Below, piece after piece: positions 32,310 to 46,702 of a stretch of DNA of 48,929 nucleotides. Source of the DNA: Bacillota bacterium (GTDB lineage: Bacteria > Bacillota > Sulfobacillia > UBA8153). The translations under genes were made by a program, and so were the position numbers. The notes beneath the pieces are model-generated. The model did no database searches. It had not been told where the DNA came from and saw only the letters and a list, made by a program, of their open reading frames with translations. Within the stretch, counting starts at the first letter, position 1, and each line of letters starts with the position of its first letter. Where the stretch lies: NCBI GenBank assembly GCA_007130145.1, contig SLSY01000086.1:1-48929 (forward strand), given 5' to 3'.

Positions 32310-32319
32310 TCTCTTTTGC

Positions 32320-33336
32320 CTACTCCTTCTTTGCCATGTTCTCTAACACGCTAGCCATCTCTTCCAGCGCTCCGCTGTCCAAATATTTCATCGCGTACAG
32401 AATTCCATTGGCTATCGCTTTGCCGTTGGAGGCACCGTGGCACTTTATACAGGGCTGAGCCAAACCCAAAAGAGGTGCTCCACCATACTCAGTATAATCA
32501 AGACGAGATTTCAATTCTCTCAGTGCCCCTTGCGCCAACCAGCCACCCATACGCGCACGAGTGCTACTATTCAAGGCGGACCCAAACATGGTGAATACCG
32601 CCTGCGCCACTCCTTCGGTACTCTTGAGAAGAAGGTTACCGGCGAACCCATCTGTCACCACCACTTCAACATCTCCCTGGTAGACATCGCGAGGCTCGAT
32701 GTTACCCACAAAGCGAATGGTCTCGGCTTCACTCAACAGCTGATAAGACTTCTTCGTGAACTCAGTTCCCTTGTTGGCTTCACCGCCAATATTGAGCAGG
32801 CCCACGGACGGGTTCTCACATTCGAGGGCGCCGCTGGCATAGGCCGATCCCATGACAGCCAGCTGTATCATCTGGCCGGGCCTCATGTCTGTGGATGCTC
32901 CAACATCTAGCACCGCGACCCCACGTCCTGTTACGGTCGGCAGTATGGTGCACAAAGCGGGTCGACTGATACCGGGCAAACGCCCCAGTACCAATGAACC
33001 ACCCACCAGCAATGCACCTGTATTGCCGGCGGAAACGAAGGCATCCCCCCGACCTTCCTTTACCAATCTGAGTCCCACAGCAATGGACGAATCGGGCTTA
33101 TGACGAAAGGCCTCAACCGGTGATTCATCATTGCCGATGATCTCGGATGCATGGACGATCTCCAGGTTATCGGGGCGCTTGAGCTCGGCTTCCTCAAAGG
33201 TGTCCTCCAGCACTTGCCGGTCACCGACCAACACCACATCGACATCAAGATAACAAGCAGCGGCCGTTGCGCCAGAAATGAGGGACAAGGGTGCTCGATC
33301 TCCACCCATACCATCAACCACTATGCAATGTCTCAT
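32320..33336 (-). CDS. plsX: Phosphate:acyl-ACP acyltransferase PlsX
   Basis: IVVDGMGGDRAP, VSAGNTGAL and GASNGKAIANGI. Confidence 0.93.
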   Translation of the reverse strand: MRHCIVVDGMGGDRAPLSLISGATAAACYLDVDVVLVGDRQVLEDTFEEAELKRPDNLEIVHASEIIGNDESPVEAFRHKPDSSIAVGLRLVKEGRGDAFVSAGNTGALLVGGSLVLGRLPGISRPALCTILPTVTGRGVAVLDVGASTDMRPGQMIQLAVMGSAYASGALECENPSVGLLNIGGEANKGTEFTKKSYQLLSEAETIRFVGNIEPRDVYQGDVEVVVTDGFAGNLLLKSTEGVAQAVFTMFGSALNSSTRARMGGWLAQGALRELKSRLDYTEYGGAPLLGLAQPCIKCHGASNGKAIANGILYAMKYLDSGALEEMASVLENMAKKE

Positions 33337-33916
33337 TGCTCTTATCGTCCTCCTCGTCCGGTTTGGACTCTAGGGCAAACACCACGAACTTACCACGGAA
33401 CACCTGCTTACCTTCAGCGCGGGTTACCACCAGAACGACGGTCTGACCACGGCGCTGCCGGATGACTTCAGCTCGGGCCACCAAACGATCTCCTACCTGT
33501 ACGGGCCGCTTGTACTTGACATTAGCCAAACCGGTCAGCACCGTATCGGCATCCACCAGCGCAATGGCCAGTGAATCGGCCTGTGCAAACACAAAATGCC
33601 CCCTTACCACTCCACTGCGGGCAAAGCCCATATCGCTGGTGGTTTCCAGGATAGAGACGGCACTTTGTCCCAGCTGCAAGTCAACCAATTCTCCCACAAT
33701 GTCCTGCGCCGCTATGGACTTAAGGGAGCTGTGTTCTCGCTGTGCTACCGCCCGTGTGCGCCGGCGTAACTCGGGGATGCCCAGCGCGAGGCGATCCAAG
33801 CGAATCGTCTGCACACTGACATCCAGCTGCTCGGCCAGATCGCGATCAGGCAGGAAGGGGTTATCCTCAAGCAATTCCTTGAGTGTGCATTGGCGCTCGG
33901 CGCGACTTGATGTCAA
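33314..33916 (-). CDS. fapR: Fatty acid/phospholipid synthesis repressor FapR
   Basis: SRAERQ..LKELLEDNPFLPDRDLAEQLDVSVQTIRLDRLALGIPELR is followed by a hot-dog thioesterase-like C-terminus. I placed the start at TTG 33916, 8 nt after GGGAGGTG. The ORF extends to 33952. Confidence 0.85.
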   Translation of the reverse strand: MTSSRAERQCTLKELLEDNPFLPDRDLAEQLDVSVQTIRLDRLALGIPELRRRTRAVAQREHSSLKSIAAQDIVGELVDLQLGQSAVSILETTSDMGFARSGVVRGHFVFAQADSLAIALVDADTVLTGLANVKYKRPVQVGDRLVARAEVIRQRRGQTVVLVVTRAEGKQVFRGKFVVFALESKPDEEDDKSNETLHSG

Positions 33917-33942
33917 CGGGCACACCTCCCTGAGACCTTCTA

Positions 33943-33993
33943 ATATGACCAACTACTAAGAGCAAGTATACATTAGTTTGGCCCCGGGGGCAA
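33943..33993 (-). promoter_or_regulatory. Candidate fapR-operon promoter (TTGCCC-17-TATACT) with an inverted repeat bracketing the -10
   Basis: The minus-strand -35 maps to 33988-33993 and the -10 to 33965-33970. ACTAA-N13-TTAGT (33955-33977) brackets the -10. A TTAGTA half-site is followed by GTTGGTCATAT (33943-33959). TTAGTA resembles my recollection of the FapR-box half-site. Confidence 0.3.
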
Positions 33994-34019
33994 TAGTTGA
34001 AAAACACCGCGCGAACGCC

Positions 34020-34052
34020 AAAAAAGCCCCGCTTAGACGCATCCAAGGGGGC
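34020..34052 (-). terminator. Rho-independent terminator after rpmF
   Basis: The minus strand reads GCCCCCTT-loop(10)-AAGCGGGGC, an 8 bp stem with a 1-nt bulge, followed directly by TTTTTT. Confidence 0.6.
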
Positions 34053-34077
34053 CCTGATCGCCTGCAAACAGGCAGAA

Positions 34078-34260
34078 TTATTTCTCTTCGACTTTAATGA
34101 CAGACCGATTATTGTAGTAACCACAACTGCCGCAAACCTGGTGTGGCATCTTCCAGTCGTGGCATCGAGGGCACTTGGCCAAATTCGGAGGCGTCAGTTT
34201 CCAATTGGCCCGACGCTTATCCCGTCTCGCCTTGGATGTCTTCTTCTTTGGTACAGCCAT
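34078..34260 (-). CDS. rpmF: 50S ribosomal protein L32
   Basis: MAVPKKKTSKARRDKRRA with Cys4 (CPRCHDWKMPHQVCGSCG). Start placed at Met3 of the ORF. Confidence 0.93.
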   Translation of the reverse strand: MAVPKKKTSKARRDKRRANWKLTPPNLAKCPRCHDWKMPHQVCGSCGYYNNRSVIKVEEK

Positions 34261-34262
34261 CG

Positions 34263-34802
34263 TCACCCACCCTTTTCTTGCTCTTCGATCTTCTTGCGTA
34301 ACTCTGCTAGAGCCTGCATGCGAGGATCAGGCGTTGCCTCTTCATCCTGCGTTACTCTCTCAAGTCCGGCACAATCCTCATCGCACAACGGTTTCATGGG
34401 AAGGGCCACAAGCAAGTGTTGCCGGATCGGCTCGAGCAAATCAATGTATTCGCCTTCTACCAGAAACCAGTCCTCTACATCCTCATCACTGTCCCGGGGC
34501 GCTTGTGATGCGATACGATACTCAATCAAAACCGGAATCTGTACGGGAAAGTCGCATCGCTGCAAACAGCGGGCACAGGTCTGTCGAGCAAGGCCCGCGA
34601 CTTCACCTCTGGCCAGTATTCCGGTACCGGTTGGACTCAATGTCACTTTCACCCGCACGGGCTCAGGAAACACCCGGTCATCGTCCGTCTCTTCGGGGAT
34701 GGCCATCTCGGCATCAATGTGGATGACTTCTCCAAAATCAGCCCGCTCCAACAGTGTCTGTACGCGAACTTTCACCTGAACACACCCCCACGCCACGCTC
34801 AT
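34263..34802 (-). CDS. yceD: YceD/DUF177 family protein (23S rRNA accumulation protein)
   Basis: Conserved position upstream of rpmF. It has a C-terminal Cys cluster and acidic tail (CARCLQRC...CDEDCAGL). Start taken at Met61 (34802), just after the stop of the upstream gene. Confidence 0.78.
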   Translation of the reverse strand: MSVAWGCVQVKVRVQTLLERADFGEVIHIDAEMAIPEETDDDRVFPEPVRVKVTLSPTGTGILARGEVAGLARQTCARCLQRCDFPVQIPVLIEYRIASQAPRDSDEDVEDWFLVEGEYIDLLEPIRQHLLVALPMKPLCDEDCAGLERVTQDEEATPDPRMQALAELRKKIEEQEKGG

Positions 34803-34812
34803 TCTACAGGCG

Positions 34813-35847
34813 TCAGGACGCCTTGTCAAGGGAAAAGAGCACTTGCACCGCCTCATCCAGGTTCCCAACGGGAAACACGTCGACGGTAGTGGCGGCTTGC
34901 TCCGCCTCTCGTGCGTTGGCTGCTGGCACCAGGAAGACATCGGCCCCCGCCTTCTCAGCGGCCTGAACCTTCTGCCGAACACCGCCCACGGGGTTCACAT
35001 TGGCATCACGATCCAGAATTCCGGTCCCGGCAATCACCAAACCCTGGGGCACCAGTTCCCGGTCGTAACGTCCCATAACCTGTAAGGTGAACATAAGACC
35101 AGCCGAAGGGCCTCCCACCTCACCAGCATCTATGGTAACATCACTGGGGCCAATGACTTGAGGACCAGCGGTCAGAACCATAATGCCGATGTACGATCTC
35201 ATCGCATCCTCTGGATGCTCACCCGTCTCTATCTCCACACTAGCGATCTCTTGCTCACGTGCATAGCGAACCGCTACTATGTCTCCCGGACTAATCTCCT
35301 GCAAGTAGGCAAGGAGTTCATCGCCCGTTTGGACCGTCATACTATCAAGATGAGTTATGACATCGCCCACCTTCAGCTCCCCATGAGCGGGAGCATCAGG
35401 AAGGACATAGGTAACCACCGCGCCTTCGCCCGCCATATGCACCGGATAACCCAGTTGCTCAAAGGCCAGCTGAATGGCTAGCGCCTGACTGTCCTTCATG
35501 AGCCACTGATTTTGAAGGTAGTATTCCTCGATCGTTTGCCCCGGTCGCAAGATGTTGGACAGATGAACCATGTCAATCCCGGGATGGAAGACACCGACCA
35601 CTGCCAGCCATAAACGGGCCTGATTAGTGAACACGGTTGTCATCAAGAGTCCTTGAGATTCTCCCGCCTGACCATCAACACTGATCATAGGACCCACATC
35701 CACAGCTTGTCCCGGCCGGAGGATTAAATAGTTGGTGGGCCAGCTAAGAAAGTAAAACGCCACAACGAGTATGACAGCTAGCACGGCAAGTCGCGCCACC
35801 TGGCGACGAGCGGCTCGCATCATAGCCACCAATCGATTACCCGTCAT
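34813..35847 (-). CDS. Membrane-anchored PDZ plus Lon-protease-C-terminal-domain protein (YlbL/SepM-like)
   Basis: N-terminal TM segment, a PDZ segment (GELKVGDVITHLD), and an S16 Lon catalytic domain with GGPSAGLMFTL (Ser) and GGVRQKV (Lys). Confidence 0.85.
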   Translation of the reverse strand: MTGNRLVAMMRAARRQVARLAVLAVILVVAFYFLSWPTNYLILRPGQAVDVGPMISVDGQAGESQGLLMTTVFTNQARLWLAVVGVFHPGIDMVHLSNILRPGQTIEEYYLQNQWLMKDSQALAIQLAFEQLGYPVHMAGEGAVVTYVLPDAPAHGELKVGDVITHLDSMTVQTGDELLAYLQEISPGDIVAVRYAREQEIASVEIETGEHPEDAMRSYIGIMVLTAGPQVIGPSDVTIDAGEVGGPSAGLMFTLQVMGRYDRELVPQGLVIAGTGILDRDANVNPVGGVRQKVQAAEKAGADVFLVPAANAREAEQAATTVDVFPVGNLDEAVQVLFSLDKAS

Positions 35848-36056: not shown

Positions 36057-36241
36057 TGAACAGAGCAAGAGCCCAAAGAAATACCTGCCCAAAGATGAGG
36101 ACACATACCCGCTGTGTCCCCTGGTAACTCCTATCCCATAGCCAGCCTCATAGCATCGCTGGCGCGAATGAGGATGGGGGGTTGTTCTGCTGACCCCTGC
36201 TCACGTCGTCCCACAACGTATGCTCAGAATACGGACACGAA

Positions 36242-36273
36242 ACAAGGGGTGGGCCCAAGAGCCCACCCCTTGT
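36242..36273 (-). terminator. Terminator hairpin after the HydA-like gene
   Basis: A perfect 13-bp stem ACAAGGGGTGGGC/GCCCACCCCTTGT with a 6-nt loop lies 10 nt after the stop at 36284. It is followed on the minus strand by TTTCGTGT, a short T-run. Confidence 0.6.
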
Positions 36274-36283
36274 TGCCTCCGGA

Positions 36284-38068
36284 TCAATCAGCGTCAGAAG
36301 CTACATCCTTAGCCTTGTCCTCCGCCTTATCCTCCGCCTTATCGGTAAAACGACCGCGTGCTGTATAGTGTGTGTGCAAGAGCTCGTGAGACTTGTGTCC
36401 TAACGGCTTCTCCAGATACTCCTCGTACAGCTCCTTTACGGCTGGATTGTCATGGGACTTGCGTAAGGCTAAGTCCTTATCGGCTTGGTAAATGCCACCG
36501 ATTCTCTGTTGGCGGGTCTCGGTGTTGGTGGGAATGGGTTGTCCGCCACCACCAATGCATCCACCGGGGCAACACATGATCTCGACGAAGTGCCAATCGG
36601 CCTCTCCGCTCTTGATGCGTTCCATGAGCTCGCGGGCATTGCTCAACCCATGGCTCACAGCGACCTTAACCGTTGTGCCGGCCACGTCCACTTCCGCTTC
36701 CTTGATACCCTGGAGACCGCGCACCGGTTCAAAGTCCAGACCCGGCAGTTCATCGCCGGTGAGAACCTCATAGGCCGTGCGCAGGGCAGCCTCCATCACA
36801 CCACCAGTAGCGCCGAAGATCACTGCAGCACCCGTGCTCATGCCCAGCGGTGCATCATAATCTTCCTCTTCCAAGGATCTGAAGTCGATGCCTGCCTCAG
36901 CTATCATACGACCCAGCTCGCGAGTGGTGAGCACATAGTCCACATCCTGGTAGCCACTGGAGTTCATCTCGGGGCGCTGGGCCTCGAACTTCTTGGCAGT
37001 ACAAGGCATGATGGACACAACCACAATGCTGGCCGGGTCAATGCCCGCCTTCTCTGCGTAGAAGGTCTTGGCTAACGCACCGAACATCTGCTGCGGCGAC
37101 TTACACGTGGACAGGTTGGGCAACAACTCCGGATAGAAGTGTTCAATGAACTTGATCCATCCCGGGCTGCAAGACGTGAACATGGGCAAGACTCCGCCAC
37201 TTTGGATCCGGTCGATCAGCTCGTGCCCTTCCTCCATGATGGTCAGGTCTGCCGTGAAATCAGTATCGAACACGCGATCAAATCCCAATGCGCGCAGAGC
37301 GGCTACGAGTTTGCCGGTGCTCACTTCACCCACATCCAGACCGAAGGCTTCTCCAATCGAGACACGAATGGCTGGAGCAGTCTGCACCACCACGTGTTTT
37401 TCTGGATCGGACAGCACAGCCCAAACATCGTCTACGTATTCCTTCTCCGTCAGGGCTCCTACCGGGCACACCAGTGTGCACTGACCGCACATGGTGCACG
37501 CTGCCTCCTGCAGCTTGTCCCCGAAGGCAGGACCCACCGTGGTTTCCATGCCACGTTCGTTCAGGCCAATGGCGGATACACCCTGCACATGTTCGCACAC
37601 AGCAATGCAGCGGCGACACAGGATGCACTTCTCCGGATCTCGCACGATGGACGGGGTAGACGAATCAACCGGTCTCTCTACACGCTCGCCTTCAAAACGA
37701 GACTCTCTAATGCCCATCTCCGCGGTCAGATCCTGCAGTTCGCAGTGCTGATTGCGCACACATGTAAGGCATTCAAACGGGTGATCCGATAAGATCAATT
37801 CCAGATTCAAGCGCCGCGCTTTACGCACCGGGGCACTATTGGTTGAGATCTCCATGCCTTCACCCACTGGAGTTACGCAAGCGGCCTGCAAGGTGCGGGC
37901 ACCCTTGACTTCAACCACGCAAATCCGACACGAACCGACCACATTGACGTCTTCCAGGTAACACAACGTCGGGATCTTGATCCCAGCCTGCTGCGCCGCC
38001 TCCAATATGGTGGTTCCACTTTCGACCTGTACCTTTTTCCTGTCTATGGTCAATGTAACCAAAGCCAC
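36284..38068 (-). CDS. [FeFe]-hydrogenase HydA-like large subunit (bifurcating HydABC / StnC-like) with a variant L1 motif
   Basis: N-terminal plant-type 2Fe-2S and His-ligated/2x[4Fe-4S] domains (CYLEDVNVVGSCRIC, HPFECLTC, CILCRRCIAVC, CTMCGQCTLVCP). H-domain motifs are L1 FTSCSPGW, L2 MPCTAKKFE and L3 EIMCCPGGCIGGGGQP. Confidence 0.92.
   Translation of the reverse strand: MALVTLTIDRKKVQVESGTTILEAAQQAGIKIPTLCYLEDVNVVGSCRICVVEVKGARTLQAACVTPVGEGMEISTNSAPVRKARRLNLELILSDHPFECLTCVRNQHCELQDLTAEMGIRESRFEGERVERPVDSSTPSIVRDPEKCILCRRCIAVCEHVQGVSAIGLNERGMETTVGPAFGDKLQEAACTMCGQCTLVCPVGALTEKEYVDDVWAVLSDPEKHVVVQTAPAIRVSIGEAFGLDVGEVSTGKLVAALRALGFDRVFDTDFTADLTIMEEGHELIDRIQSGGVLPMFTSCSPGWIKFIEHFYPELLPNLSTCKSPQQMFGALAKTFYAEKAGIDPASIVVVSIMPCTAKKFEAQRPEMNSSGYQDVDYVLTTRELGRMIAEAGIDFRSLEEEDYDAPLGMSTGAAVIFGATGGVMEAALRTAYEVLTGDELPGLDFEPVRGLQGIKEAEVDVAGTTVKVAVSHGLSNARELMERIKSGEADWHFVEIMCCPGGCIGGGGQPIPTNTETRQQRIGGIYQADKDLALRKSHDNPAVKELYEEYLEKPLGHKSHELLHTHYTARGRFTDKAEDKAEDKAKDVASDAD
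36313..36345. repeat. Tandem 12-nt repeat (about 2.7 copies) encoding the (K-A-E-D)n tail of the HydA-like protein
   Basis: CCTTGTCCTCCG / CCTTATCCTCCG / CCTTATCGG, read directly from the sequence. The protein tail is DKAEDKAEDKAKD. Confidence 0.7.
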
Positions 38069-38093
38069 AGTCTATCCCTCCCTCCTATCTAAC

Positions 38094-41000
38094 CTACTCA
38101 GGCACGTCACAACGCAGGCAGCGAGCCGCTTCTTTCTTGGCCGCCTCCTCGTCATATCCGGTCTCCACTTCAGTGAAGGAACCCAAACGCTCCTCACAGC
38201 TGACACATATCGCGGGCATCTTCTCCCGCGGCATGACTTGCTCGGACACCTCGGCACGCAACACGCGTTCCACCGGCAGTTCCGGAACCACATCCCCGTG
38301 TCCGCCAAGGTACTTGTCAATGGAGCCGGCGGCCAGCTTACCAGCCTGTACGGCCTTAATCACCGTCGCTGGCCCTGTCACCAAATCGCCTCCGGCAAAT
38401 AGGCCGTCCACTCCGGTAACGCCGGCCTCGGTCGCCAGCACTGTGCCATTTCGCATGGTTTCCAGACCACACTCGGCCATAAGTTCTCCGGTGGGAACCT
38501 GGCCAATGGCGGTAATGACTACATCAGCTGGAATCTCGAACTCGGAGTCTTCCACCGGCAGGCTGCGACGCCGTCCGCTGCTGTCAAAGTCACCTGACCG
38601 CATGGTAATGCACTGTAAGGCCGCTACCTTACCATCCTGCCCCAGTGCCTTGACCGGGTTGACCATGGGCAGGATCTTGATGCCTTCATGAAGAGCTTCC
38701 TCGATTTCCAGACGCTCGGCCGGCATATCCTGCAAGCTGCGACGGTAAACAATGGTCACGCTCTCGGCACCCAAGCGTAGCGAAGAACGAGCGGCATCGA
38801 TAGCTACATTGCCACCGCCGACCACTACGACTCGCTTGCCTTGCACCTCACCCTGGCCGGAGATGTTCAACAGGCGCAAGAAAGCAGCACCGGGCTTAAT
38901 ACCCTCCAAATCCTCACCTTCAATACCCAAACTCTGATCGTTATGGGCACCAATGGCCAGGTAGATAGCATCAAAGCCTTGATCCTTCAAGTCTTGTAGC
39001 GTGAAGTCACGTCCCAAGGCTTGTCTGGTGCGGATCTCAACGCCAGCCTGGGTTATGGCCTGTATCTCTTTGTCCAGAACAGCTCTGGGCAAACGGTACT
39101 CAGGGATGCCCACCGTCAGCATACCACCAGCGACGGGCTGTGCTTCAAACACCGTGATATCATAGCCCTTGCATCCCAGATAGTATCCGGCACTCAAACC
39201 CGCTGGCCCCGCCCCTACAATGGCTACCTTCTTACCGTTATCCGGCAACCTGTCCACTTCGGGCCAGCAATCGTTCTCGATGACATAGTCCGAAGCAAAG
39301 CGCTTCAGGGCGCGGATGGCAACCGGTTCGTCGATCTGTTCACGCCGGCACCGCGCTTCGCAGGGATGGTCACATACCCGGCCACATACCACCACGAAGG
39401 GATTCTGACGGCGCACCGTCTTGTAGGCTTCCACGTACTCACCGGCCCTGACTTGATCGACGTAGATCGGCACGTCCACCTCGGCCGGACAGGTGTTTTG
39501 ACACGGCGAATCAAACAGAGAAGCGCACACAGACGCCGGACACTTGCGATCGCGGATGTGTGCTTCGTATTCGTCGCGGAAGAAATTGATGGTGCTAAGA
39601 ACAGGGTTGGGAGCCGTCTGCCCCAAGCCGCACAGCGCTGTGCTCTTGATTGATTCGCCCAGTTCCTGCAGCATCTCGATGTCCCCGTCTTGGCCTTCGC
39701 CCCGGGTGATGCGCTGGAGGATCTCCAGCATACGCTTGGTGCCGATACGACAAGGCGTACACTTGCCACAAGACTCATCCTGCACGAATTCCAGGAAGAA
39801 CTTGGCCAAGTCCACCATACAAGTATCTTCGTCCATAACGACGAGCCCACCAGAGCCCATGATGGTTCCCAACGACTGTAACGATTCATAGTCAATGGGT
39901 GTATTCAAGTGCTCCACCGGGATACATCCACCGGAAGGACCACCGGTTTGCGCGGCCTTGAACTTGCGATGGTTGGGAATGCCGCCACCGATATCATATA
40001 TGATGTCACCCAACGATGTTCCCATGGATACCTCGACCAGACCATTGTTGTTGATGGCCCCAGCCAGAGCGAACACCTTCGTACCCGGCGACTTCTCCGT
40101 ACCCATGGTAGTGAACCAGTCGGCACCTTCACGCAAGATGGGTGCGATATTGGCAAATGTCTCCACGTTGTTGAGAACCGTTGGCTTGTCCCACAAACCA
40201 GAATTGGCAGGAAACGGTGGTCGCGGACGCGGTTCGCCGCGCCGCCCCATAATGGATGTGAGAAGAGCCGTTTCTTCTCCACACACAAAGGCACCCGCAC
40301 CGAGCCGGATGTCAATGTCGAAGTCAAACCCGCTGCCAAAGATGTTCTTGCCCAAAAGGCCCTTTTCTCTCGCCTTTTCAATGGCCAGATACAGGCGCCT
40401 AACGGCAATGGGATACTCGGCGCGGATATAGATGTAACCTTGGTTGGCCCCAACGGCATAGCCAGCAATGGCCATACCTTCCAGGATGGAATGGGGGTCG
40501 CCCTCAAGGATACTGCGATCCATGAAAGCACCAGGATCACCTTCATCTGCGTTACACACCACGTACTTGGGTGAACCATCAGCTCGAGCGGTGAATTCCC
40601 ACTTCATACCCGTTGGGAATCCGCCTCCGCCCCGGCCTCGCAATCCTGACTTTCTGACCTCGGCCACCACATCTTCGGGCTTCATTTCAAGCAAGACCTT
40701 GCCGAGACCAAGATAGCCATCTTGCGCAATATACTCTTCCAGAGACTCAGGATCAATAAGTCCACAGTTGGCCAGCACGATACGCTCTTGCTTCTTGAAA
40801 AAGTCGATATCCTGAAAATCAGATACCGTCATCTCTGCATCAGGCGGATGATACAATAGCCGCTGGACCACACGTCCTTTTAGGAAGTGCTCAGACACAA
40901 GTTCGGGTACATCCTCCAAATGGACTTCACAGTACATGACGCCCTCAGGATACACCACCATGTTAGGACCAAAGCGACAAAAACCGAAGCATCCGGTTTC

Positions 41001-41156
41001 GACAATGCGAATCTCACGCTCGAGCCCGTTATCCTCGATTTCCTCCTTGAGCGCTTGGCGCAAGGCCGTACTGTTTGAGGCCTCACATCCAGTACCGGCA
41101 CACACCAGCACATGGCTTCGGAACAAATCCACAGAGAACCTCCTCCCTTCTTCCAC
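38094..41156 (-). CDS. Fusion protein: Trx-like [2Fe-2S] + NuoF/HydB-like FMN/NADH module + GltD/NfnB-like FAD/NADPH module
   Basis: aa 1-100: VLVCAGTGC...GCFGFC. aa 125-535: GRGGGGFPTG, ADEGDPGAF, ESCGKCTPCR...LCGLG. aa 538-1020: CPASVC..CQNTCP, VCGRVCDHPCEARC, VAIVGAGPAGLSAG, VVVVGGGNVAIDAARS, TIVYRRS..DMPA. Confidence 0.93.
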   Translation of the reverse strand: MEEGRRFSVDLFRSHVLVCAGTGCEASNSTALRQALKEEIEDNGLEREIRIVETGCFGFCRFGPNMVVYPEGVMYCEVHLEDVPELVSEHFLKGRVVQRLLYHPPDAEMTVSDFQDIDFFKKQERIVLANCGLIDPESLEEYIAQDGYLGLGKVLLEMKPEDVVAEVRKSGLRGRGGGGFPTGMKWEFTARADGSPKYVVCNADEGDPGAFMDRSILEGDPHSILEGMAIAGYAVGANQGYIYIRAEYPIAVRRLYLAIEKAREKGLLGKNIFGSGFDFDIDIRLGAGAFVCGEETALLTSIMGRRGEPRPRPPFPANSGLWDKPTVLNNVETFANIAPILREGADWFTTMGTEKSPGTKVFALAGAINNNGLVEVSMGTSLGDIIYDIGGGIPNHRKFKAAQTGGPSGGCIPVEHLNTPIDYESLQSLGTIMGSGGLVVMDEDTCMVDLAKFFLEFVQDESCGKCTPCRIGTKRMLEILQRITRGEGQDGDIEMLQELGESIKSTALCGLGQTAPNPVLSTINFFRDEYEAHIRDRKCPASVCASLFDSPCQNTCPAEVDVPIYVDQVRAGEYVEAYKTVRRQNPFVVVCGRVCDHPCEARCRREQIDEPVAIRALKRFASDYVIENDCWPEVDRLPDNGKKVAIVGAGPAGLSAGYYLGCKGYDITVFEAQPVAGGMLTVGIPEYRLPRAVLDKEIQAITQAGVEIRTRQALGRDFTLQDLKDQGFDAIYLAIGAHNDQSLGIEGEDLEGIKPGAAFLRLLNISGQGEVQGKRVVVVGGGNVAIDAARSSLRLGAESVTIVYRRSLQDMPAERLEIEEALHEGIKILPMVNPVKALGQDGKVAALQCITMRSGDFDSSGRRRSLPVEDSEFEIPADVVITAIGQVPTGELMAECGLETMRNGTVLATEAGVTGVDGLFAGGDLVTGPATVIKAVQAGKLAAGSIDKYLGGHGDVVPELPVERVLRAEVSEQVMPREKMPAICVSCEERLGSFTEVETGYDEEAAKKEAARCLRCDVPE

Positions 41157-41177
41157 TCTCCAAAACTAATTGCATCT

Positions 41178-41552
41178 TCATTCTTCTCGTGACTCACTTA
41201 CGTTGAGCGCCCATTCGGATATGACATTGCCATTGGCCACGTGTTGTGCCACGATCTGCCGGGCTCGGCTGGGCGAAACTTCTCCATACGTCACCCGGGG
41301 CTGTCCAGGCATGAAGACATCTACCAGGGGCTCACGCGAGCAAATGCCCACGCATCCTGTCTGTGTCACGACGGCCTTGAGGCGGCGCTTGTTCAATTCA
41401 TCCAGGATAGATTCCAGTGCATCACGAGCGCCAGCAGCAATACCACAGGTACCCATACCCACGACGATGCGGGCCTCATCCTGTCCCTGACGGACCCGGA
41501 TATCTTCCTTCACTCTATCCTTGATCTCTCTGAGCTCTTCCAGAGACTTCAC
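41178..41552 (-). CDS. Thioredoxin-like [2Fe-2S] ferredoxin (HydD/HndB-like)
   Basis: 124 aa with VVGMGTCGIAAGA and QTGCVGICSREP (four Cys). GTG start in a TAGTG overlap with the upstream stop, preceded by GGAGGTG. Confidence 0.85.
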   Translation of the reverse strand: MKSLEELREIKDRVKEDIRVRQGQDEARIVVGMGTCGIAAGARDALESILDELNKRRLKAVVTQTGCVGICSREPLVDVFMPGQPRVTYGEVSPSRARQIVAQHVANGNVISEWALNVSESREE

Positions 41553-42103
41553 TAGATTTCACCTCCTCTGAGGTCTTGGATACTGGTCCGGTATGTGTCC
41601 CGTACCCACTTTACCACTTGCGGATGGTTGATGGGTAGATCATCCAACTCCTCACGCATGCGGCGCGTGTCGAACACGCACTCTTGACCATTATAACAGT
41701 GGTGATACACGAGGTCTAGATGGGGATTGGTTGCCACAATGATAGCCAGTGTGCCACCCATATCGCCCAGTGGCGGTCGATCAACGTGCGAATGCTGAAA
41801 GACTGCTACTACCCGTGTTCCGCCCCTTGGTGCCGCCGTTACCTTCAGGTACCCGTCACTTTGCTCACATGCTTGCGCCAGCAAGGGTAAGCCCAATCCT
41901 ACCCGCCGGGTCTTGCGCGTGGTGACAAAGGCATCGGCCACACTCGCACGCATTTGTTCATCCATGCCGGGGCCGTCATCATCCACCATCACGGTCAACC
42001 GATCCTCGGTTGTGTCTTCATCGATGTTGACCCAGATGCAGCGAGCGCCAGCCGCACGGCTGTTCTCATACAGGTCCAACAGGTGAAGAGCCAGTTCCTC
42101 CAA
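41552..42103 (-). CDS. Stand-alone GHKL (HATPase_c) ATPase domain protein, no DHp/HisKA domain
   Basis: N-box-like LDLYENSRAAGA, G1 VDDDGPGMD and G2 RRVGLGLPLL. Only 183 aa. Wedged between the NuoE-like and Trx-like genes. Confidence 0.8.
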   Translation of the reverse strand: MEELALHLLDLYENSRAAGARCIWVNIDEDTTEDRLTVMVDDDGPGMDEQMRASVADAFVTTRKTRRVGLGLPLLAQACEQSDGYLKVTAAPRGGTRVVAVFQHSHVDRPPLGDMGGTLAIIVATNPHLDLVYHHCYNGQECVFDTRRMREELDDLPINHPQVVKWVRDTYRTSIQDLRGGEI

Positions 42104-42104
42104 T

Positions 42105-42602
42105 TCAGTTGCTTTCCGGCTTGCGATAGCGTTCTAGCAGGGCAGACACGCGATCAGCCTTAATCCGCGCATGGGTGTCTTCGTTAACCGTCAGCACAGG
42201 AGCCAAGCCACATGCGCCCAAACAACGAACCACCTCTAGTGAGAACTCCCGGTCATCGGTGGTATCCCCGGGTGAAATGCCCAATTCCCTCTGCAGTCTC
42301 TCCAGCACCTTGGGAGCACCTCGGACATAACAGGCTGTTCCCTGACAACAGTTCACTTGAACGCGTCCCTTGGGTTTCAGTGAGAAGAGTGAATAGAACG
42401 TGACCACACCATAGATCTCGGCCAAGGAGACGTTCAGTCCCTCAGCGATCATCTCCTGAGCTTTTCTGGGCACATAGCCGAGTGACTCCTGGGCTGTGTG
42501 GAGCACCTGAATCAACGCACCTGCGTTACCACGATTTGTCTCGATAGCCTTCTCAAGTGCACCGTAATCCTCTTCCTGGCAAACACAAACCTTTTCCTCC
42601 AA
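42105..42602 (-). CDS. NuoE/HydC-like [2Fe-2S] subunit
   Basis: CCQGTACYVRG...VRCLGACGLAP is the Cx4C...Cx3C NuoE motif, with LIQVLHTAQE near the N-terminus. Confidence 0.9.
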   Translation of the reverse strand: MEEKVCVCQEEDYGALEKAIETNRGNAGALIQVLHTAQESLGYVPRKAQEMIAEGLNVSLAEIYGVVTFYSLFSLKPKGRVQVNCCQGTACYVRGAPKVLERLQRELGISPGDTTDDREFSLEVVRCLGACGLAPVLTVNEDTHARIKADRVSALLERYRKPESN

Positions 42603-42604
42603 CT

Positions 42605-43366
42605 CTAGTTCCTCCCTTCTCTGACGCCTACTAAGGCCAGCCGGTGGCCATCATCACCCCGGCAAGCCTTACGAAATGATTCTAGATCCAGCCGCTGACA
42701 ATACACACCCGTCTTCTGTCGCCCCACCTCGCTTCTGTGATGCGCATCAGACGATGTTACCAAGGCGATCGACTCGCCAATGGCATGCATCCTCCGCAGC
42801 GCATCCGTATTTCTGCCACCGGACACCTCTAGAGCTGTGACCCCGAGGCCTTCCGGCACAAAACCCAGTACTCCTAGCAACCCGAAGCTCTCTCTCTCAA
42901 TGTGGGCCGGTATACTTACCCCCCCTAAGGCCCGGGTCATATCAACCACCTGCTCCAGTGAATAGCCACTGGCTGTGGATAGCATGTTGTCCTCTTCTCC
43001 GACCACCCGGTTCGTGCAGTCGTAAATCAGCTGCTCTCCTAACACACGCGCCATAGATCGCCGGCGGAGAAGAGTATCACCTATTTGCTGCGACATATCT
43101 TTTGCTTGCTCAAGGGACGAGAAGATGCAAAGGACATGGACTTCTTCACTGGTCTCCACCTCAAGGCCCGGCCAAACGATCAAGTCGAAGGGCTCTGCCT
43201 GGCACATCACCGCCTCGCAATTGAGAGCACTGTTATGGTCGGTTATGGCGATGGCATCCAATCCCACTTCCAGGGCTGCCGTCACCACACCGTGAGGATC
43301 CATATCAGCTCCAGCGCAAGGCGAGAGCGCAGTGTGCACATGGAGATCAACCAGGTGCCACTTCAT
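42605..43366 (-). CDS. PHP-domain metal-dependent phosphoesterase
   Basis: VDLHVHTALSPC, AITDHNS and SDAHH. The start at Met13 forms an ATGA overlap with the upstream stop (43363-43366). Confidence 0.85.
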   Translation of the reverse strand: MKWHLVDLHVHTALSPCAGADMDPHGVVTAALEVGLDAIAITDHNSALNCEAVMCQAEPFDLIVWPGLEVETSEEVHVLCIFSSLEQAKDMSQQIGDTLLRRRSMARVLGEQLIYDCTNRVVGEEDNMLSTASGYSLEQVVDMTRALGGVSIPAHIERESFGLLGVLGFVPEGLGVTALEVSGGRNTDALRRMHAIGESIALVTSSDAHHRSEVGRQKTGVYCQRLDLESFRKACRGDDGHRLALVGVREGRN

Positions 43367-43716
43367 TCTTTGTCCTTTAGGCATGCAAACAAGCGACCAC
43401 ACACCTCAAAACTGCGCGACGATGCACTGAACAAGGCCACCTGCTCTCGCCTGGCCGTCTCGAGCGTCTCGGGTTTAACTGGCCGATCTCCCGTGATCAC
43501 TATGCCAGCCATTCCCACCAGAACGGCCACAGCCACGATGTTCTGATGGCTTTGCATCGTAACCCACAAACTGCCTTCTTGAGCATGCGCCATCACGTCC
43601 GAGAGCAGGTCTCCCACATACCCTGCCTTTACCGGGCGCTCGGGATCATATGAGCCCTGAGGACACAATTCGAGTGCTTCCACAACTTCAACCAGCTTCA
43701 CCATCATCATCCTCAC
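43363..43716 (-). CDS. DRTGG-domain protein
   Basis: About 115 aa with GYVGDLLSDVMAHAQEGSLWVT and AGIVITGDRPVKPETLETARREQVALF. The start lies among clustered Met codons at 43704-43716 and overlaps the upstream gene end. Confidence 0.78.
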   Translation of the reverse strand: MRMMMVKLVEVVEALELCPQGSYDPERPVKAGYVGDLLSDVMAHAQEGSLWVTMQSHQNIVAVAVLVGMAGIVITGDRPVKPETLETARREQVALFSASSRSFEVCGRLFACLKDKE

Positions 43717-45019
43717 TCTGTTGAGTATGCGACTTCATCCCCATGGAGCGGGGCAGGTGCCGGGCCAAGTCAACTATTTCTTCAGCCATTCCGTGAACTC
43801 GTTCACGCAGCTTCAGCACACAATCCATCTCATCTGCGTAACCGCGTACAATATCCTCTGCCAAGGCTCGACAGCTGGGAGCGCCACAAGCTCCGCAATC
43901 CAAGCCGGGCAGTTGATCTTCCACCGCTTCCAGCTGGCGGAGTTTGTCAATGGCGCGAGATATATCATCGTCGAGTCTGAGCACGGGGCGCGCTTTTACC
44001 TCGCTCAGGTAGGTGAAGTAGTCACTCTTTAGACGTTGCTCTAACCCGGGGGTCGCCTCCTCGCCATGTGCCCCGCGTTCGGCAGCCAGATTACGCACTC
44101 GTACACGAGCGACAAAGGGATTTTCCACGGCCAAACACCCACCCACGCAACCCGTAACACAAGCCTGGGCCTCTATGAAGTCCAGTCCGGCCAGCTTGTC
44201 TCGCTCCACTTCTTCAAAGACTTTAATGCACTGGTGAATGCCATCCACGGCAAGAGAATCTCGCCCCATGATCGTGGTCTCACCGCCGGAGCGCCCCCAA
44301 CCCATTCCGTAACCCGAAGCCTTAGGAATGAGAGGAGCGCGGGCCGCATGCTCCATTTGCCGCAAACATTCGGCATAAATAGCAGACATGGAGAAGGCTC
44401 CATCAACCGCGCTCTTGTCACGACCCACCGGCTGCTTGATCGCCGTTACCTTGGCCGGACAAGGAGAAACGAAAAAGACTCCATGCTCGGGACCGAGAGT
44501 GTCCTTGGCAATCTTAGCTGCCATCTCCATGGGAGACTCTAGTTTGATCAAATGATCGAGAAGCGCGGGGAAACGCACCTGAATCAGGCGCACCACGGCC
44601 GGACAAGCAGAAGAAATCAAGGGACGGGGTGAGGAATGTTCCTTCAAGTAACGCCGCATCGCCATGGATACGGCATCGGCGGCCAGCGCCACTTCATACA
44701 CTTCGTCAAAACCGATCAACCGTAAAGCACTCAGTACCACTCCTGGATCAGGCGTAGGAAACTGTCCCATGAAAGCCGGCGCCGGTATGATCACTGACTT
44801 GGGATATGCCTTCACGAGGTCCAGCGAATCGGTGACGGCCAGCTTAGCATGGTTAGGGCAGACACGAATGCATTCCCCGCAATCAATGCACCGTTCTTCA
44901 AAGATCCAAGCTCGCCCGTCCCTCACCCGAATCGCTTCGGTAGGGCAGCGCTTAATGCAGTTGGTACACCCTTTACACTTTTCTGCATCTAAGGTGACTG
45001 AATGGTAGTAGTCGGCCAC
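43688..45019 (-). CDS. Sensory-type [FeFe]-hydrogenase homologue (HydS-like) lacking a PAS domain
   Basis: N-terminal 2x[4Fe-4S] (CKGCTNCIKRCP, CIDCGECIRVCP). H-domain variants are SSACP, SPCPAK and EAQACVTGCVGG. C-terminal CGACGAPSC-x16-C. I placed the start at GTG 45019, 6 nt after AGGAGG. The ORF is open to 45106. Confidence 0.85.
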   Translation of the reverse strand: MADYYHSVTLDAEKCKGCTNCIKRCPTEAIRVRDGRAWIFEERCIDCGECIRVCPNHAKLAVTDSLDLVKAYPKSVIIPAPAFMGQFPTPDPGVVLSALRLIGFDEVYEVALAADAVSMAMRRYLKEHSSPRPLISSACPAVVRLIQVRFPALLDHLIKLESPMEMAAKIAKDTLGPEHGVFFVSPCPAKVTAIKQPVGRDKSAVDGAFSMSAIYAECLRQMEHAARAPLIPKASGYGMGWGRSGGETTIMGRDSLAVDGIHQCIKVFEEVERDKLAGLDFIEAQACVTGCVGGCLAVENPFVARVRVRNLAAERGAHGEEATPGLEQRLKSDYFTYLSEVKARPVLRLDDDISRAIDKLRQLEAVEDQLPGLDCGACGAPSCRALAEDIVRGYADEMDCVLKLRERVHGMAEEIVDLARHLPRSMGMKSHTQQSEDDDGEAG

Positions 45020-45111
45020 AGCCGTCCTCCTGAATTGAACTAGTTTTGTCATGCATTGCATGGGTCCTGCCGCTGCCCGTATATCCGGGCCTCCGTCAGG
45101 GAGCAAACGTC

Positions 45112-45567
45112 TTACTCTCGACCTTTGCTGAAAAAAAGCAATCGCAAGGTTGTACCCTTGTCCACAACCGAATCAAGGTGCATTTGATCGACACAACGCT
45201 TAATGTTGGTCAGCCCCATGCCCGCCCCGAACCCCATTTCCCGCACGTGCGTCGGGGCCGTCGAGTATCCATCCTGCATCGCCAAATCAATATCTGGAAT
45301 GCCTGGCCCCTCATCCTCAACGCATATTTCTATGCGCTCCGGACCAATCTTCGCCACCAAGCATCCGCGGTGCGCGTGAATCACCACATTGATTTCGGCT
45401 TCATAGGTTGCGCTGGCTACACGTCTAATCATATCCGCCGGCATGCCCAGTTGCGTCATAGTGCGCTTGATTCCTGTCGCCGCTTCCCCGGCCGTTGTGA
45501 AATCCATTCCCTTGATTCTAAACTCCAGTACGATACGGGAATCATTGTTCGGTCGGGCGTCATTCAC
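45112..45567 (-). CDS. RsbW/SpoIIAB-like GHKL serine-protein-kinase (anti-sigma-factor-like)
   Basis: 151 aa with AGEAATGIK, N-box YEAEINVVIHA, G1 VEDEGPGIPD and G2 GFGAGMGLTNIKR. Confidence 0.8.
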   Translation of the reverse strand: MNDARPNNDSRIVLEFRIKGMDFTTAGEAATGIKRTMTQLGMPADMIRRVASATYEAEINVVIHAHRGCLVAKIGPERIEICVEDEGPGIPDIDLAMQDGYSTAPTHVREMGFGAGMGLTNIKRCVDQMHLDSVVDKGTTLRLLFFSKGRE

Positions 45568-45593
45568 CCCTTACTCACTCCTGTTCAGGCCAT

Positions 45594-46148
45594 TCACGAA
45601 TTACAACCGGGAAGACCCGCTTTATAGAGTAAACCACAGCTCGTGTACAGCAAGTGGTCGGTGGCAAGCAGAGGTAAACCGCGCTCAGCTGCCATTTCCA
45701 GCACCTTTTCAGACGGGAGTGGACGCTTGCCCCTGACGAACACGACGGCACTGGCATCAATGATATACGCACTGTGAATCACTTGGACGTTCGTCAACCC
45801 GGTCAAAAGGACAACACCGGGCTTGCCAAAGGTCAAGAAGTCGCTCATCATGTCGCAACCAAAGGCCGACTCAACCACCAGTTCCTTGTGCTCCTCGCCG
45901 GTCAAGAAGGTAGCATCAAGCAACTCCTGTATCTGACCTAGTTTAATGGGTCTCAACCTCCTGGTCTTGGTAATCCATAATGTCTGTGCAACCAATAATA
46001 CATTCAGCACGCGCCAAGGTATTTCCTGCCCTTCCAACCCACTTGTCGGAGAACTATTTGGTTTTCGCATGAATAAGCGGCATAAGCGGATCAAAATATG
46101 GGCCAGAGGGCGTGAGACGGCATGTGAAGTAGAATATCCAACCGTCAT
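45594..46148 (-). CDS. DRTGG-domain protein, true start probably near 45945
   Basis: The C-terminal roughly 115 aa are DRTGG-like (CDMMSDFLTFGKPGVVLLTG, AVVFVRGKRPLPSEKVLEMAAERGLPLLAT). The N-terminal roughly 65 aa of the ORF look non-protein-like. AGGAGG sits at about 45954-45959. Confidence 0.7.
   Translation of the reverse strand: MTVGYSTSHAVSRPLAHILIRLCRLFMRKPNSSPTSGLEGQEIPWRVLNVLLVAQTLWITKTRRLRPIKLGQIQELLDATFLTGEEHKELVVESAFGCDMMSDFLTFGKPGVVLLTGLTNVQVIHSAYIIDASAVVFVRGKRPLPSEKVLEMAAERGLPLLATDHLLYTSCGLLYKAGLPGCNS
46073..46089. repeat. Tandem ATAAGCGG-N1-ATAAGCGG upstream of the hyd/stn-like operon
   Basis: Read directly from the sequence, with a period of 9 nt. It lies in the probable untranslated region upstream of the first DRTGG gene. 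Confidence 0.5.
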
Positions 46149-46330
46149 GGTAGTTTTACCCCCTCGCGCGCCCCAGACCCTCTACCGCTGAGACAACGTT
46201 TCAAAAGCAGGATTATGCCACAATAAGGGCGAAGGATTGACTTTGTGGTACGTAGCGAGCCCATGTGACGAGGGTAATCGCTCTTCGAGCTGAATGGTAT
46301 AGCATTGGGTGGGGACGGTGAGTCACCGGC

Positions 46331-46702
46331 ATGCTCGGCAATATCATCAGGCAATACCGCATGGATAAAGGCCTTTCACTGCGTGCATTTGCTTCTAGAT
46401 GTGGACTGAGTCACAGTTACGTAGACATGCTCGAGAAGGGACACGACCCTCGCAACGGTCAATCGCCCCGGCCGAGTATAGACACCCTGATCGCGCTGGC
46501 CAAGGGGCTGGAAATTGAGGCGCGTGAACTGATGGCCCATGCGGACCACCTGTCGTCGGCAGAACGACAAGACATTGAGTCCTTCGCCATTGCGTACAGA
46601 GAAGACCCCCTGTCCGATCTTCCTGAGCATGCACGTCTTTGTGTCGAACGATTCATCCAAAGAATGCGGCATAAATACGGGGTAAAGGAAACACGCGACT
46701 GA
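46331..46702 (+). CDS. XRE-family helix-turn-helix transcriptional regulator
   Basis: IIRQYRMDKGLSLRAFASRCGLSHSYVDMLEKG is a Cro/C1-type HTH. The palindrome CGGTGAgTCACCG (46316-46328) lies just before the ATG. Confidence 0.8.
   Translation: MLGNIIRQYRMDKGLSLRAFASRCGLSHSYVDMLEKGHDPRNGQSPRPSIDTLIALAKGLEIEARELMAHADHLSSAERQDIESFAIAYREDPLSDLPEHARLCVERFIQRMRHKYGVKETRD

Follow-up and report, generated by a model that had tools for sequence, protein, structure and literature searches.

The structure and predicted function of a ten-gene cluster at positions 36284-46148 of a 48,929-nucleotide contig from an uncultured Bacillota bacterium (GenBank assembly GCA_007130145.1, contig SLSY01000086.1; this whole stretch is referred to as the window) were investigated by computational analysis. 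We consider, with modest confidence and on the basis of sequence comparison, that the ten genes probably form one transcription unit, in which an H2- or redox-sensing cassette precedes an NAD(H)- and NADP(H)-linked hydrogenase that would be tuned by it. Both the list of open reading frames and the Pfam and NCBIfam searches presented ten consecutive minus-strand genes, thereby bearing out the common direction and all ten domain assignments of a first-pass annotation made from the sequence letters. That annotation had also described signalling-type genes as interleaved with structural redox subunits, and the same order was recovered here. The genes, in the direction of transcription, are as follows (aa, amino acids).

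Positions 45594 to 45956, minus strand: DRTGG1, a small stand-alone DRTGG protein of about 118-120 aa (Pfam PF07085), with an uncertain start.
Positions 45112 to 45567, minus strand: SpoIIAB/RsbW-type serine-kinase-like GHKL protein, 151 aa (HATPase_c_2; PF13581, PF02518).
Positions 43688 to 45019, minus strand: HydS, a group D (M2e, TamHydS-type) putative sensory [FeFe]-hydrogenase, 443 aa (two Fer4, Fe_hyd_lg_C and PF04060 in Pfam, with alignment A1).
Positions 43363 to 43710, minus strand: DRTGG2, a second small DRTGG protein (PF07085), whose start overlaps the end of hydS by 14-29 nucleotides (nt).
Positions 42605 to 43366, minus strand: PHP-family metal-dependent phosphoesterase, 253 aa (PF02811), whose ATG overlaps the DRTGG2 stop codon (ATGA).
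Positions 42105 to 42602, minus strand: HydC, a NuoE-like thioredoxin-fold [2Fe-2S] subunit (2Fe-2S_thioredx; PF01257, E = 2.8e-50), also matched by the NuoE/HoxE models of NCBIfam.
Positions 41552 to 42103, minus strand: stand-alone GHKL ATPase, 183 aa (HATPase_c; PF02518), with a C-terminal extension of about 75 aa.
Positions 41178 to 41552, minus strand: HydD-like thioredoxin-fold protein, 124 aa, with no Pfam match and a below-cut-off match to NCBIfam NF041612 (E = 2.2e-11).
Positions 38094 to 41132, minus strand: HydB::GltD fusion, 1012 aa (Complex1_51K, NADH_4Fe-4S, Fer4_20 and Pyr_redox_2; Pfam and structure matches).
Positions 36284 to 38068, minus strand: HydA, the catalytic [FeFe]-hydrogenase subunit (Fer2_4, NuoG-type 4Fe-4S, Fer4, Fe_hyd_lg_C and Fe_hyd_SSU; Pfam, NCBIfam and structure matches).

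The order of these genes is conserved well beyond the window. A HydS-alignment scan with one genome per species detected at least 574 genomes with a relative, from which the best 80 loci (47-57% identity) were taken with 10-kb flanks and scored by tblastn with the window proteins; 77 were scorable and three were not. In 57 of the 77, hydC, the GHKL gene, hydD, hydB and hydA come directly after the signalling genes. The first-pass annotation had described a neighbourhood of DRTGG, kinase, Fe-hydrogenase-like and PHP genes next to hydABC(D), and this description proved correct: the neighbourhood recurs in these 57 genomes, including Thermoanaerobacterium, Tepidanaerobacter and Acetivibrio, and spans Bacillota, Armatimonadota, Coprothermobacterota and metagenome-assembled genomes of deltaproteobacterial/Syntrophorhabdales affiliation. 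Its proposed neighbourhood check, in which the HydB type was also compared, showed that most linked loci carry a plain HydB and nine carry HydB::GltD, and that the adjacency is not coincidental. HydB::GltD occurs in the window's gene order in L002, L016 and L074 (all ten genes) and in L051 (without DRTGG1 and PHP), and in the order GHKL-HydD-HydC-HydB::GltD-HydA in L049, L071, L075, L076 and L078. Other public genomes thus share the complete ten-gene order with HydB::GltD, and the window is an uncultured-Bacillota example of it. The closest relative, L081 (HydB 73% identity), shows otherwise the same order with a first gene of 168 aa lacking a DRTGG match, and cultured Thermanaeromonas toyohensis (L082) shows the window's order without DRTGG1 and PHP. 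In the remaining 20 of the 77 loci, the signalling genes are followed by at least 2.9 kb free of hyd genes; 13 of these hold the five-gene module and seven hold kinase and HydS with or without DRTGG1. No conserved target was found downstream of the stand-alone modules, where methyltransferase, LacI-type regulator and phosphorylase genes are located.

The junctions between the window genes were determined after the starts had been revised by using homologue N-termini, gene calls (P0121, P0001) and Shine-Dalgarno sites. The hydS start was placed at GTG 45019 (AGGAGG, then 6 nt), which gives a kinase-hydS gap of 92 nt rather than 5, and the hydB start at GTG 41132, which leaves a 45-nt gap before hydB; the DRTGG1-kinase and HydB-HydA gaps are 26 and 25 nt, respectively. 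The GHKL and HydD-like genes share TAGTG with a 1-nt overlap at 41552, DRTGG2 and PHP overlap in ATGA (43366-43363), and gaps of 2 nt (42603-42604) and 1 nt (42104) separate PHP from the NuoE-like gene and the latter from the GHKL gene. The length of the HydS-DRTGG2 overlap, 14-29 nt, is set by the choice among five start codons (43716-43701). All overlaps and gaps quoted in the first-pass annotation are present in the sequence. Its wider description of ten translationally coupled genes stands for the five of nine junctions that overlap or lie no more than 2 nt apart and fails for the other four, which measure 25-92 nt and each have a good ribosome-binding site of their own. It had further spoken of the two modules as welded together, and this did not hold as a general trait: the signalling/structural junction in the 57 linked loci has a median of about 100 nt, exceeds 100 nt in 28 and 300 nt in six, and reaches a maximum of 2.8 kb, so the 2-nt weld is lineage-specific. 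The junctions inside the signalling module are consistently tight across loci. These tight junctions, together with one strong hairpin after the last gene, support a single unit.

Positions 36243 to 36272, minus strand: terminator-like GC-rich hairpin, 11 nt past the hydA stop codon (free energy -37.4 kcal/mol, z = -6.5).

None of 200 shuffles folds as well as this hairpin, which is the strongest 44-nt fold on the minus strand in 36100-46400 and has a weak U-tract (UUUCGUGU); with that reservation, the first-pass placement of a terminator hairpin after the last gene was borne out, the strongest hairpin being located there.

HydS belongs, as judged from its motifs, to the group D (M2e, TamHydS-type) putative sensory [FeFe]-hydrogenases, a very large and well conserved family. 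It consists of two N-terminal [4Fe-4S] motifs, an H-domain (Fe_hyd_lg_C, E = 2.6e-33) and a C-terminal Cx2Cx4Cx16C cluster domain, where PF04060 matches residues 399-430 of the long hydS open reading frame; Pfam detected no PAS domain. The cysteine ligands of the H-cluster, C139 (SSACP), C187 (SPCPAK) and C287 with C291 (QACxxGC), are all invariant in alignment A1. The SSACP motif places Ala at the position of CpI C299, the proton-relay Cys, the SPC motif places Ser at that of M353, as in TamHydS, and EAQAC places Gln at that of M497. The C-terminal cluster (C375/C378/C383/C400) has D374 and D399 beside two of its Cys. TamHydS of Thermoanaerobacter mathranii resembles the window protein in its two [4Fe-4S] motifs, H-domain, C-terminal Cx2Cx4Cx16C domain and lack of PAS, in the replacement of the relay Cys by Ala and of Met353 by Ser, in the Asp residues beside two C-terminal cluster Cys, and in a gene location that has a multimeric group A hydrogenase downstream and an ATPase resembling histidine kinases as its neighbour. 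It differs in carrying Leu rather than Gln at CpI Met497, and the hydrogenase downstream of the window HydS has a GltD-fused HydB. The window HydS is 48-53% identical to relatives from Thermoanaerobacterium and Thermoanaerobacteraceae. TamHydS is sensor-like in vitro, is encoded upstream of a bifurcating hydrogenase and lies beside an ATPase that resembles histidine kinases, and its authors left signal transduction unexplained (PMC8163306, PMC13104023); a 2024 survey calls group D 'functionally undefined' (PMC11216029). The statement of the first-pass annotation that the signalling function had never been established agrees with this literature (PMC8163306, PMC11216029). Group C HydS systems (R. 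albus HydS, Thermoanaerobacterium hfsABCD) also contain an H2-sensor-like [FeFe]-hydrogenase with a C-terminal cluster, encoded with Ser/Thr kinase and phosphatase-type genes beside catalytic hydrogenase genes, and genetic data on hfsB indicate a regulatory role (PMC11837493). However, the group C sensor carries PAS as a fused domain and is partnered by PP2C-type phosphatases, whereas the window cassette lacks PAS and has DRTGG proteins and a PHP phosphoesterase.

The kinase-like protein is the most constant neighbour of HydS, being present in 78 of the 80 loci. It matches the SpoIIAB structures 1til and 1th8 (E = 1.6e-8), and its N-box (E56/N60/H64), G1 box (D85xGxG) and G2 box (G112-F-G-A-G-M-G-L) are invariant in 78 of 78 orthologues. 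As in SpoIIAB-SpoIIAA and RsbW-RsbV partner switching, this small protein belongs to the GHKL Ser-kinase family and its ATP-binding boxes are intact; unlike those systems, the window operon lacks a STAS antagonist, a PP2C phosphatase and an adjacent sigma factor, and the small partners have the DRTGG fold. All nine PHP metal ligands (H21, H23, D55, H56, E81, H89, H167, D219 and H221) are kept in 67-68 of 68 orthologues. The protein is only weakly similar in sequence to PHP enzymes of known structure, among which an exoribonuclease is the best match (E = 0.007). Together with the equally invariant motifs of the 183-aa GHKL protein described below, these intact sites suggest working enzymes rather than relics.

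Both DRTGG paralogues have an invariant D-L-[LM]-S-D motif and a conserved Thr. The AlphaFold model of DRTGG1 (pLDDT, a per-residue confidence score, of 92) is best matched by the DRTGG structure AF1212 (2ioj, TM 0.81, a measure of structural similarity), then by the DRTGG domain of CBS-pyrophosphatase and more distantly by the N-terminal domain of HPr kinase, and not by STAS. D33, S36 and T50 are invariant in 72-73 of 73 DRTGG1 orthologues, and D36, L38, S39, W51 and T53 are invariant across DRTGG2 orthologues. Six independent 50%-identity clusters have DRTGG2 joined to the C-terminus of HydS, which places it where group C sensors carry PAS; three fusions were likewise noted when the HydS family was surveyed. 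DRTGG2 is also fused to the isolated HydS C-terminal Cx2Cx4Cx16C domain, without an H-domain, in P0395 (214 aa) and P0461 (195 aa; possibly truncated at the N-terminus). No DRTGG1 fusion was found in 145 homologues and no DRTGG-PHP fusion in the top 150 DRTGG2 clusters. The HydS::DRTGG fusions point to DRTGG as the probable output partner of the sensor.

The downstream genes are predicted to encode a HydABC-type hydrogenase with a second nicotinamide/FAD site. HydA comprises an N-terminal [2Fe-2S], a His-ligated [4Fe-4S], two [4Fe-4S], the H-domain and a small-subunit-like tail; it passes NCBIfam NF040763 'NADH-dependent [FeFe] hydrogenase, group A6' (945 bits, cut-off 765) and matches T. kivui HydA1 (8a6t_A, E = 1.4e-212) and A. 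woodii HydA1 (7q4v_A, 4.7e-212) over the full length. Its motifs are TSCSPGW, MPCTAKKFE and EIMCCPGGCIGG. The L1 motif at 37140-37160 (residues ~303-309) is TSCSPGW instead of the textbook TSCCPxW, and an inactive, Stn-like HydA with Ser at the second-Cys position of CpI was considered and rejected because TSCSPGW occurs in 56 of 58 HydA proteins beside sensor modules and in the active A. woodii HydA1 (7q4v); the divergent copies of L030 and L069 carry TSCCPAW. HydB::GltD consists, in order, of a thioredoxin-like [2Fe-2S] domain, the FMN/NADH site, NADH_4Fe-4S, a GltD/NfnL-like module (two [4Fe-4S], FAD and an NAD(P)H site) and a Cys-rich tail. Its first part is matched by PF01512 (E = 4.1e-48) and PF10589 (E = 1.6e-35), and residues 11-552 match A. 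mobile 7t2r_B and A. woodii 7q4v_B (E ~1e-250); residues 550-1017 correspond to the NfnL/GltD-like part of NfnA (9n5u_A), of C. saccharolyticus NfnA (9bov_A) and of Stn (8oh5_C), with E from 1e-106 to 1e-119. The usual C-terminal ferredoxin-type domain of HydB with two [4Fe-4S] is absent, since the matches to HydB structures stop at about 552 and residues 540-628 are the Fer4_20 of the GltD module. Bacillota commonly carry fusions of this kind, about 1010 aa long and 61-73% identical; cultured carriers are Thermanaeromonas, Moorella, Zhaonella, Anoxybacter and Desulfitibacter, among others.

Comparison with known enzymes helped to place this complex. With E from 1e-200 to 1e-250, HydA, HydB (11-552) and HydC are closely related to the subunits of the electron-bifurcating HydABC [FeFe]-hydrogenases of the Bfu family (A. 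woodii 7q4v, T. kivui 8a6t, T. maritima 7p5h), and all core cluster and FMN motifs are present. The embedded GHKL and HydD-like genes match the 'hisK/hydD' pair of Bfu operons (PMC9304861). The difference is that the window HydB carries a 470-aa GltD/NfnL-like FAD/NADPH module in place of the C-terminal domain with two [4Fe-4S], which NfnABC work implicates in ferredoxin binding. Stn and NfnABC (Nfn-Bfu; Sporomusa ovata, Caldicellulosiruptor saccharolyticus) share the NuoE-like, NuoF-like and GltD/NfnL-like NADPH-FAD blocks (PMC7483475, PMC10482914, PMC11829005), and residues ~102-567 of NfnA/StnC match window HydB 550-1017. However, their module lies inside a NuoG/Fdh-like subunit without an H-cluster and no H2 is made, whereas in the window the B subunit carries the module and a true hydrogenase serves as the A subunit (PMC7483475, PMC11829005). 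The first-pass label 'HydABC/Stn-type' was therefore right in its first half only: with the GltD module at the C-terminus of HydB and a full HydA as the NuoG-like subunit, Stn membership was rejected. An enlarged HydB with a GltD/GltA domain has been noted for Vallitalea guaymasensis in its genome paper (PMC6163223) and for hybrid hydrogenases of archaea (PMC11216029), where a glutamate-synthase-type domain likewise comes after the FMN/NADH domain, in place of the one with two [4Fe-4S]; it was interpreted as a second site, either for NAD(P)H or for a low-potential acceptor (PMC6163223, PMC11216029). Unlike the window locus, those reports describe no attached group D sensor cassette. No report of a purified or biochemically characterised GltD-fused HydB was found in the searchable literature.

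Two small proteins are embedded in the hydrogenase genes. The 183-aa GHKL protein contains only the catalytic ATP-binding domain of histidine kinases (residues 10-102), its best matches of known structure are the corresponding domains of CpxA, PhoQ and EnvZ, and all 56 orthologues examined keep D10, N14, D42xGxG and G69-L-G unchanged. It was not accepted as a two-component histidine kinase because it has no DHp/HisKA domain and the window operon has no response regulator; the closest relative, L081, carries an OmpR-type gene after hydA. The equivalent 'hisK' gene is drawn in the NiFe-HydABCSL operon of A. mobile, where hisK and hydD are reported outside the purified holoenzyme (PMC9304861). 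The HydD-like protein has only three Cys in the cluster region (C36, C67 and C71), of which C67 and C71 are conserved in 52 of 57 orthologues, and cluster binding is therefore uncertain.

Several variants of the cluster were observed among the relatives. Nine further loci have a second NuoE-NuoF::GltD(-HydA) set beside a cassette attached to a plain-HydB hydrogenase, located upstream in L013, L031, L046 and L048 and downstream in L030, L032, L055, L067 and L069; the neighbouring hydrogenase types are possibly co-regulated isoenzymes. In L079 (11325-18419) and L080 (14009-21323), the cassette, hydC, GHKL and hydB genes are present and no HydA homologue lies within the next 5.5 kb; the catalytic partner there may belong to a different type, such as the NiFe or formate dehydrogenase subunits found in other Bfu enzymes. 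In T. toyohensis ToBE (LT838272.1), the gene directly after hydA (L082:15056-17347) encodes a 763-aa product with Fer4, Fe_hyd_lg_C and PF04060 (HydS-like) together with Sigma54_activat AAA+ and HTH_8, which resembles a hydrogenase-domain enhancer-binding protein; its domain composition indicates a sensor module used as a regulatory input domain. In the same genome, maturase-like genes (Radical_SAM with BATS, a TM1266-like small protein and Radical_SAM; L082:3355-6221) lie directly upstream of kinase-hydS, and none flank the window operon. L074 (Moorellaceae) has a second HydS-like gene, 31% identical, after hydA. A CheW-like gene lies directly upstream of the kinase in L039 (9065-9532, replacing DRTGG1) and of DRTGG1 in L061 (8490-8945), and HydS in these two loci is not followed by DRTGG2, PHP or hyd genes, which hints at a chemotaxis-linked sensor variant.

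The way in which the two modules might work together was considered on the basis of these features. The first five genes would constitute the hydrogen/redox-sensing signalling cassette. HydS would bind H2 at an H-cluster of low turnover, without the usual proton relay, and its redox state would be passed to the atypical C-terminal [4Fe-4S] domain and from there to DRTGG2, in the place occupied by PAS in group C. The kinase, with its ATP site intact, and PHP, with its metal site intact, would set a phosphorylation or partner-binding state, most likely with the two DRTGG proteins as partners or acceptors. The second five genes (HydC, GHKL ATPase, HydD-like, HydB::GltD and HydA) would form a multimeric [FeFe]-hydrogenase of the HydABC family, in which the C-terminal ferredoxin-type domain of HydB appears to have been swapped for an NADPH/FAD module of the Nfn/Stn kind; this module suggests that the enzyme would couple H2 to both NAD(H) and NADP(H), whether or not ferredoxin takes part, in a stoichiometry that we can only infer. 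Pfam detected no DNA-binding protein, sigma factor, STAS, PP2C or response regulator among the ten operon genes, and the lack of a DNA-binding protein or sigma factor means that the cassette most likely acts post-translationally or via an unlinked regulator, following H2 pressure.

Several points weigh against this interpretation. The absence of STAS, PP2C, sigma factor and response regulator from the window operon means that classical partner-switching logic is not applicable. PHP or DRTGG1 is missing in otherwise equivalent clusters (L021, L028, L066, L051 and L082), and they are therefore not indispensable; PHP, given its weak relationship to solved enzymes, need not be a protein phosphatase. 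The invariant Ser of D-L-[LM]-S-D may be structural and general to DRTGG domains. The location of the signalling genes apart from hyd genes in 20 loci means that their target may exceed this hydrogenase, and ferredoxin bifurcation by HydB::GltD is not derivable from sequence. A more specific version, which we offer tentatively and consider rather unlikely in full detail, is a non-STAS, non-PP2C partner switch, in which DRTGG2 would dock on the C-terminal [4Fe-4S] domain of HydS and read its redox state, and the SpoIIAB-like kinase and PHP would write and erase a phosphate on the D-L-[LM]-S-D Ser of DRTGG1 and/or DRTGG2, thereby controlling the NADH- and NADPH-coupled hydrogenase post-translationally.

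Control at the level of transcription is the alternative that deserves most attention, although we regard it as unlikely on balance. The SpoIIAB-like protein would then be an anti-sigma factor, or would control an unlinked regulator, with the DRTGG proteins as antagonists, and H2 sensed by HydS would switch the operon and possibly other redox genes. The similarity to SpoIIAB/RsbW accords with such a role, stand-alone modules fit a global regulator, and the HydS-like::sigma-54-activator protein of T. toyohensis ties H2-type sensing to transcription in a related cluster; the DRTGG proteins are also labelled 'predicted transcriptional regulator' in the sources, which is annotation and not evidence. 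However, no sigma factor or DNA-binding gene is conserved beside the module, the XRE gene next to the window operon has no counterpart in the 80 loci, and the DRTGG fold is not STAS and has no helix-turn-helix.

It is less probable still that the accessory genes (DRTGG1/2, both GHKL genes, PHP and HydS) encode assembly, maturation or stabilising factors or low-activity extra subunits, which co-transcription would supply in step without any signalling pathway. These genes are indeed interleaved and tightly joined with the structural genes, chaperone-like families exist among GHKL ATPases, hydG/hydE-like radical-SAM maturase genes lie directly upstream of the T. toyohensis cluster, and the operon has no recognisable output domain. 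Nevertheless, the upstream kinase specifically resembles SpoIIAB/RsbW, a family of protein Ser kinases and anti-sigma factors, and the complete five-gene module occurs without nearby hydrogenase genes in 13 loci. Moreover, the A. mobile holoenzyme as purified is reported not to include 'hisK' and hydD (PMC9304861), HydABC enzymes that were isolated in active form and structurally solved consist of three subunits, and TamHydS is sensor-like rather than catalyst-like (PMC8163306). Finally, adjacency of the modules without functional connection, with the tight junction as a by-product of genome compaction, would agree with the loose inter-module junction of many genomes (median ~100 nt, up to 2.8 kb) and with the ability of the five-gene signalling module to stand alone, but is highly improbable and effectively excluded by the same order in 57 of the 77 scorable loci across several phyla, kept despite 47-57% protein identity and rearrangement of the structural genes (GHKL-Trx-NuoE order).

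A second RNA structure was found inside the operon.

Positions 42628 to 42671, minus strand: local RNA hairpin, second in strength within the operon, located in the last 65 nt of the PHP gene, at its 3' end.

This hairpin lies 25 nt before the signalling/structural boundary, has no U-tract and reaches -25.1 kcal/mol, compared with a mean of -9.7 and a standard deviation of 3.5 for sliding 44-nt folds (3419 windows). It could be a processing or stability element that gives regulator and enzyme mRNA different levels, or it may be due to chance. Scans for promoter-like and terminator-like consensus matches inside the operon were at shuffle level (8 versus 6.8 +/- 2.8 and 12 versus 8.3 +/- 2.7, respectively) and are uninformative either way. 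The best sigma-70-like match in the region (41690-41718, minus strand; TAGACC, 17-nt spacer, TG-extended TATAAT, 10/12) lies inside the GHKL gene, upstream of hydD, hydB and hydA, and may be chance, as the counts equal the shuffled expectation.

The region before the first gene was also analysed.

Positions 45957 to 46330, minus strand: non-conserved upstream region, putative promoter and leader, between a divergent XRE-type helix-turn-helix gene and the DRTGG1 core.

The conserved core of DRTGG1 starts near 45947-45956 and not at ATG 46148; DRTGG1 homologues have 111-125 aa, and the extra 64-66 N-terminal codons of the window reading frame are not conserved. The first gene has no convincing start codon: the core begins at ATT 45947, 9 nt past a perfect AGGAGG, an in-frame TTG (45956) abuts the same AGGAGG, and ATG 46070 of the gene caller and ATG 46148 of the longest reading frame add 38-64 non-conserved residues. 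An AUU start is possible. A search against Rfam gave no family match in the leader or anywhere in the window, and thus no riboswitch or other known RNA was found in the leader; a Rex box upstream was rejected because the best matches carry 4-5 mismatches. The XRE-family gene (46331-46702, plus strand) is divergent and lies 180-370 nt upstream of the operon; it was dismissed as a conserved local regulator because none of the 80 related loci has a homologue, and it is therefore probably no dedicated regulator of the cluster. Downstream of the operon (29501-35847, minus strand) are Lon_C/PDZ protease-like, yceD, thioesterase-like, plsX, fabH, DegV-family and fabD genes, and these housekeeping genes place the cluster in the core chromosome with no obvious island. 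GC content is 0.52-0.58 over most of the window and 0.505 only in the first 2 kb.

Parts of this picture are already in print, namely the group D HydS upstream of a bifurcating hydrogenase, 'hisK' in hyd operons and HydB with a GltD domain (PMC8163306, PMC9304861, PMC6163223, PMC11216029). The searchable literature, which leaves several key older papers outside, contained no account of the anatomy of the five-gene cassette, its frequency, its occasional independence of hyd genes or the HydS::DRTGG fusions. Searches on DRTGG with hydrogenase, group D with PHP and kinase, and M2e gene clusters returned nothing relevant, and an earlier description of the full neighbourhood may exist.

Multimeric [FeFe]-hydrogenases set the balance of H2, NADH and ferredoxin in fermenters, syntrophs and acetogens, and their tuning to H2 pressure is poorly understood; the literature asks outright how group D sensors without PAS transmit their signal. 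The locus and its approximately 60 relatives provide a conserved parts list, consisting of a near-constant kinase, two DRTGG proteins (one of them fused to the sensor in several lineages) and a PHP enzyme, thereby making the question of group D signalling directly testable, with the cluster present in cultured Thermanaeromonas toyohensis. The HydB::GltD variant predicts an uncharacterised hydrogenase that would touch the NADPH pool, which may be relevant to the redox engineering of thermophilic biofuel strains. If true, a DRTGG phospho-switch would represent a bacterial pathway of a new type, in which protein phosphorylation responds to H2, and would occur in hundreds of species of anaerobes.

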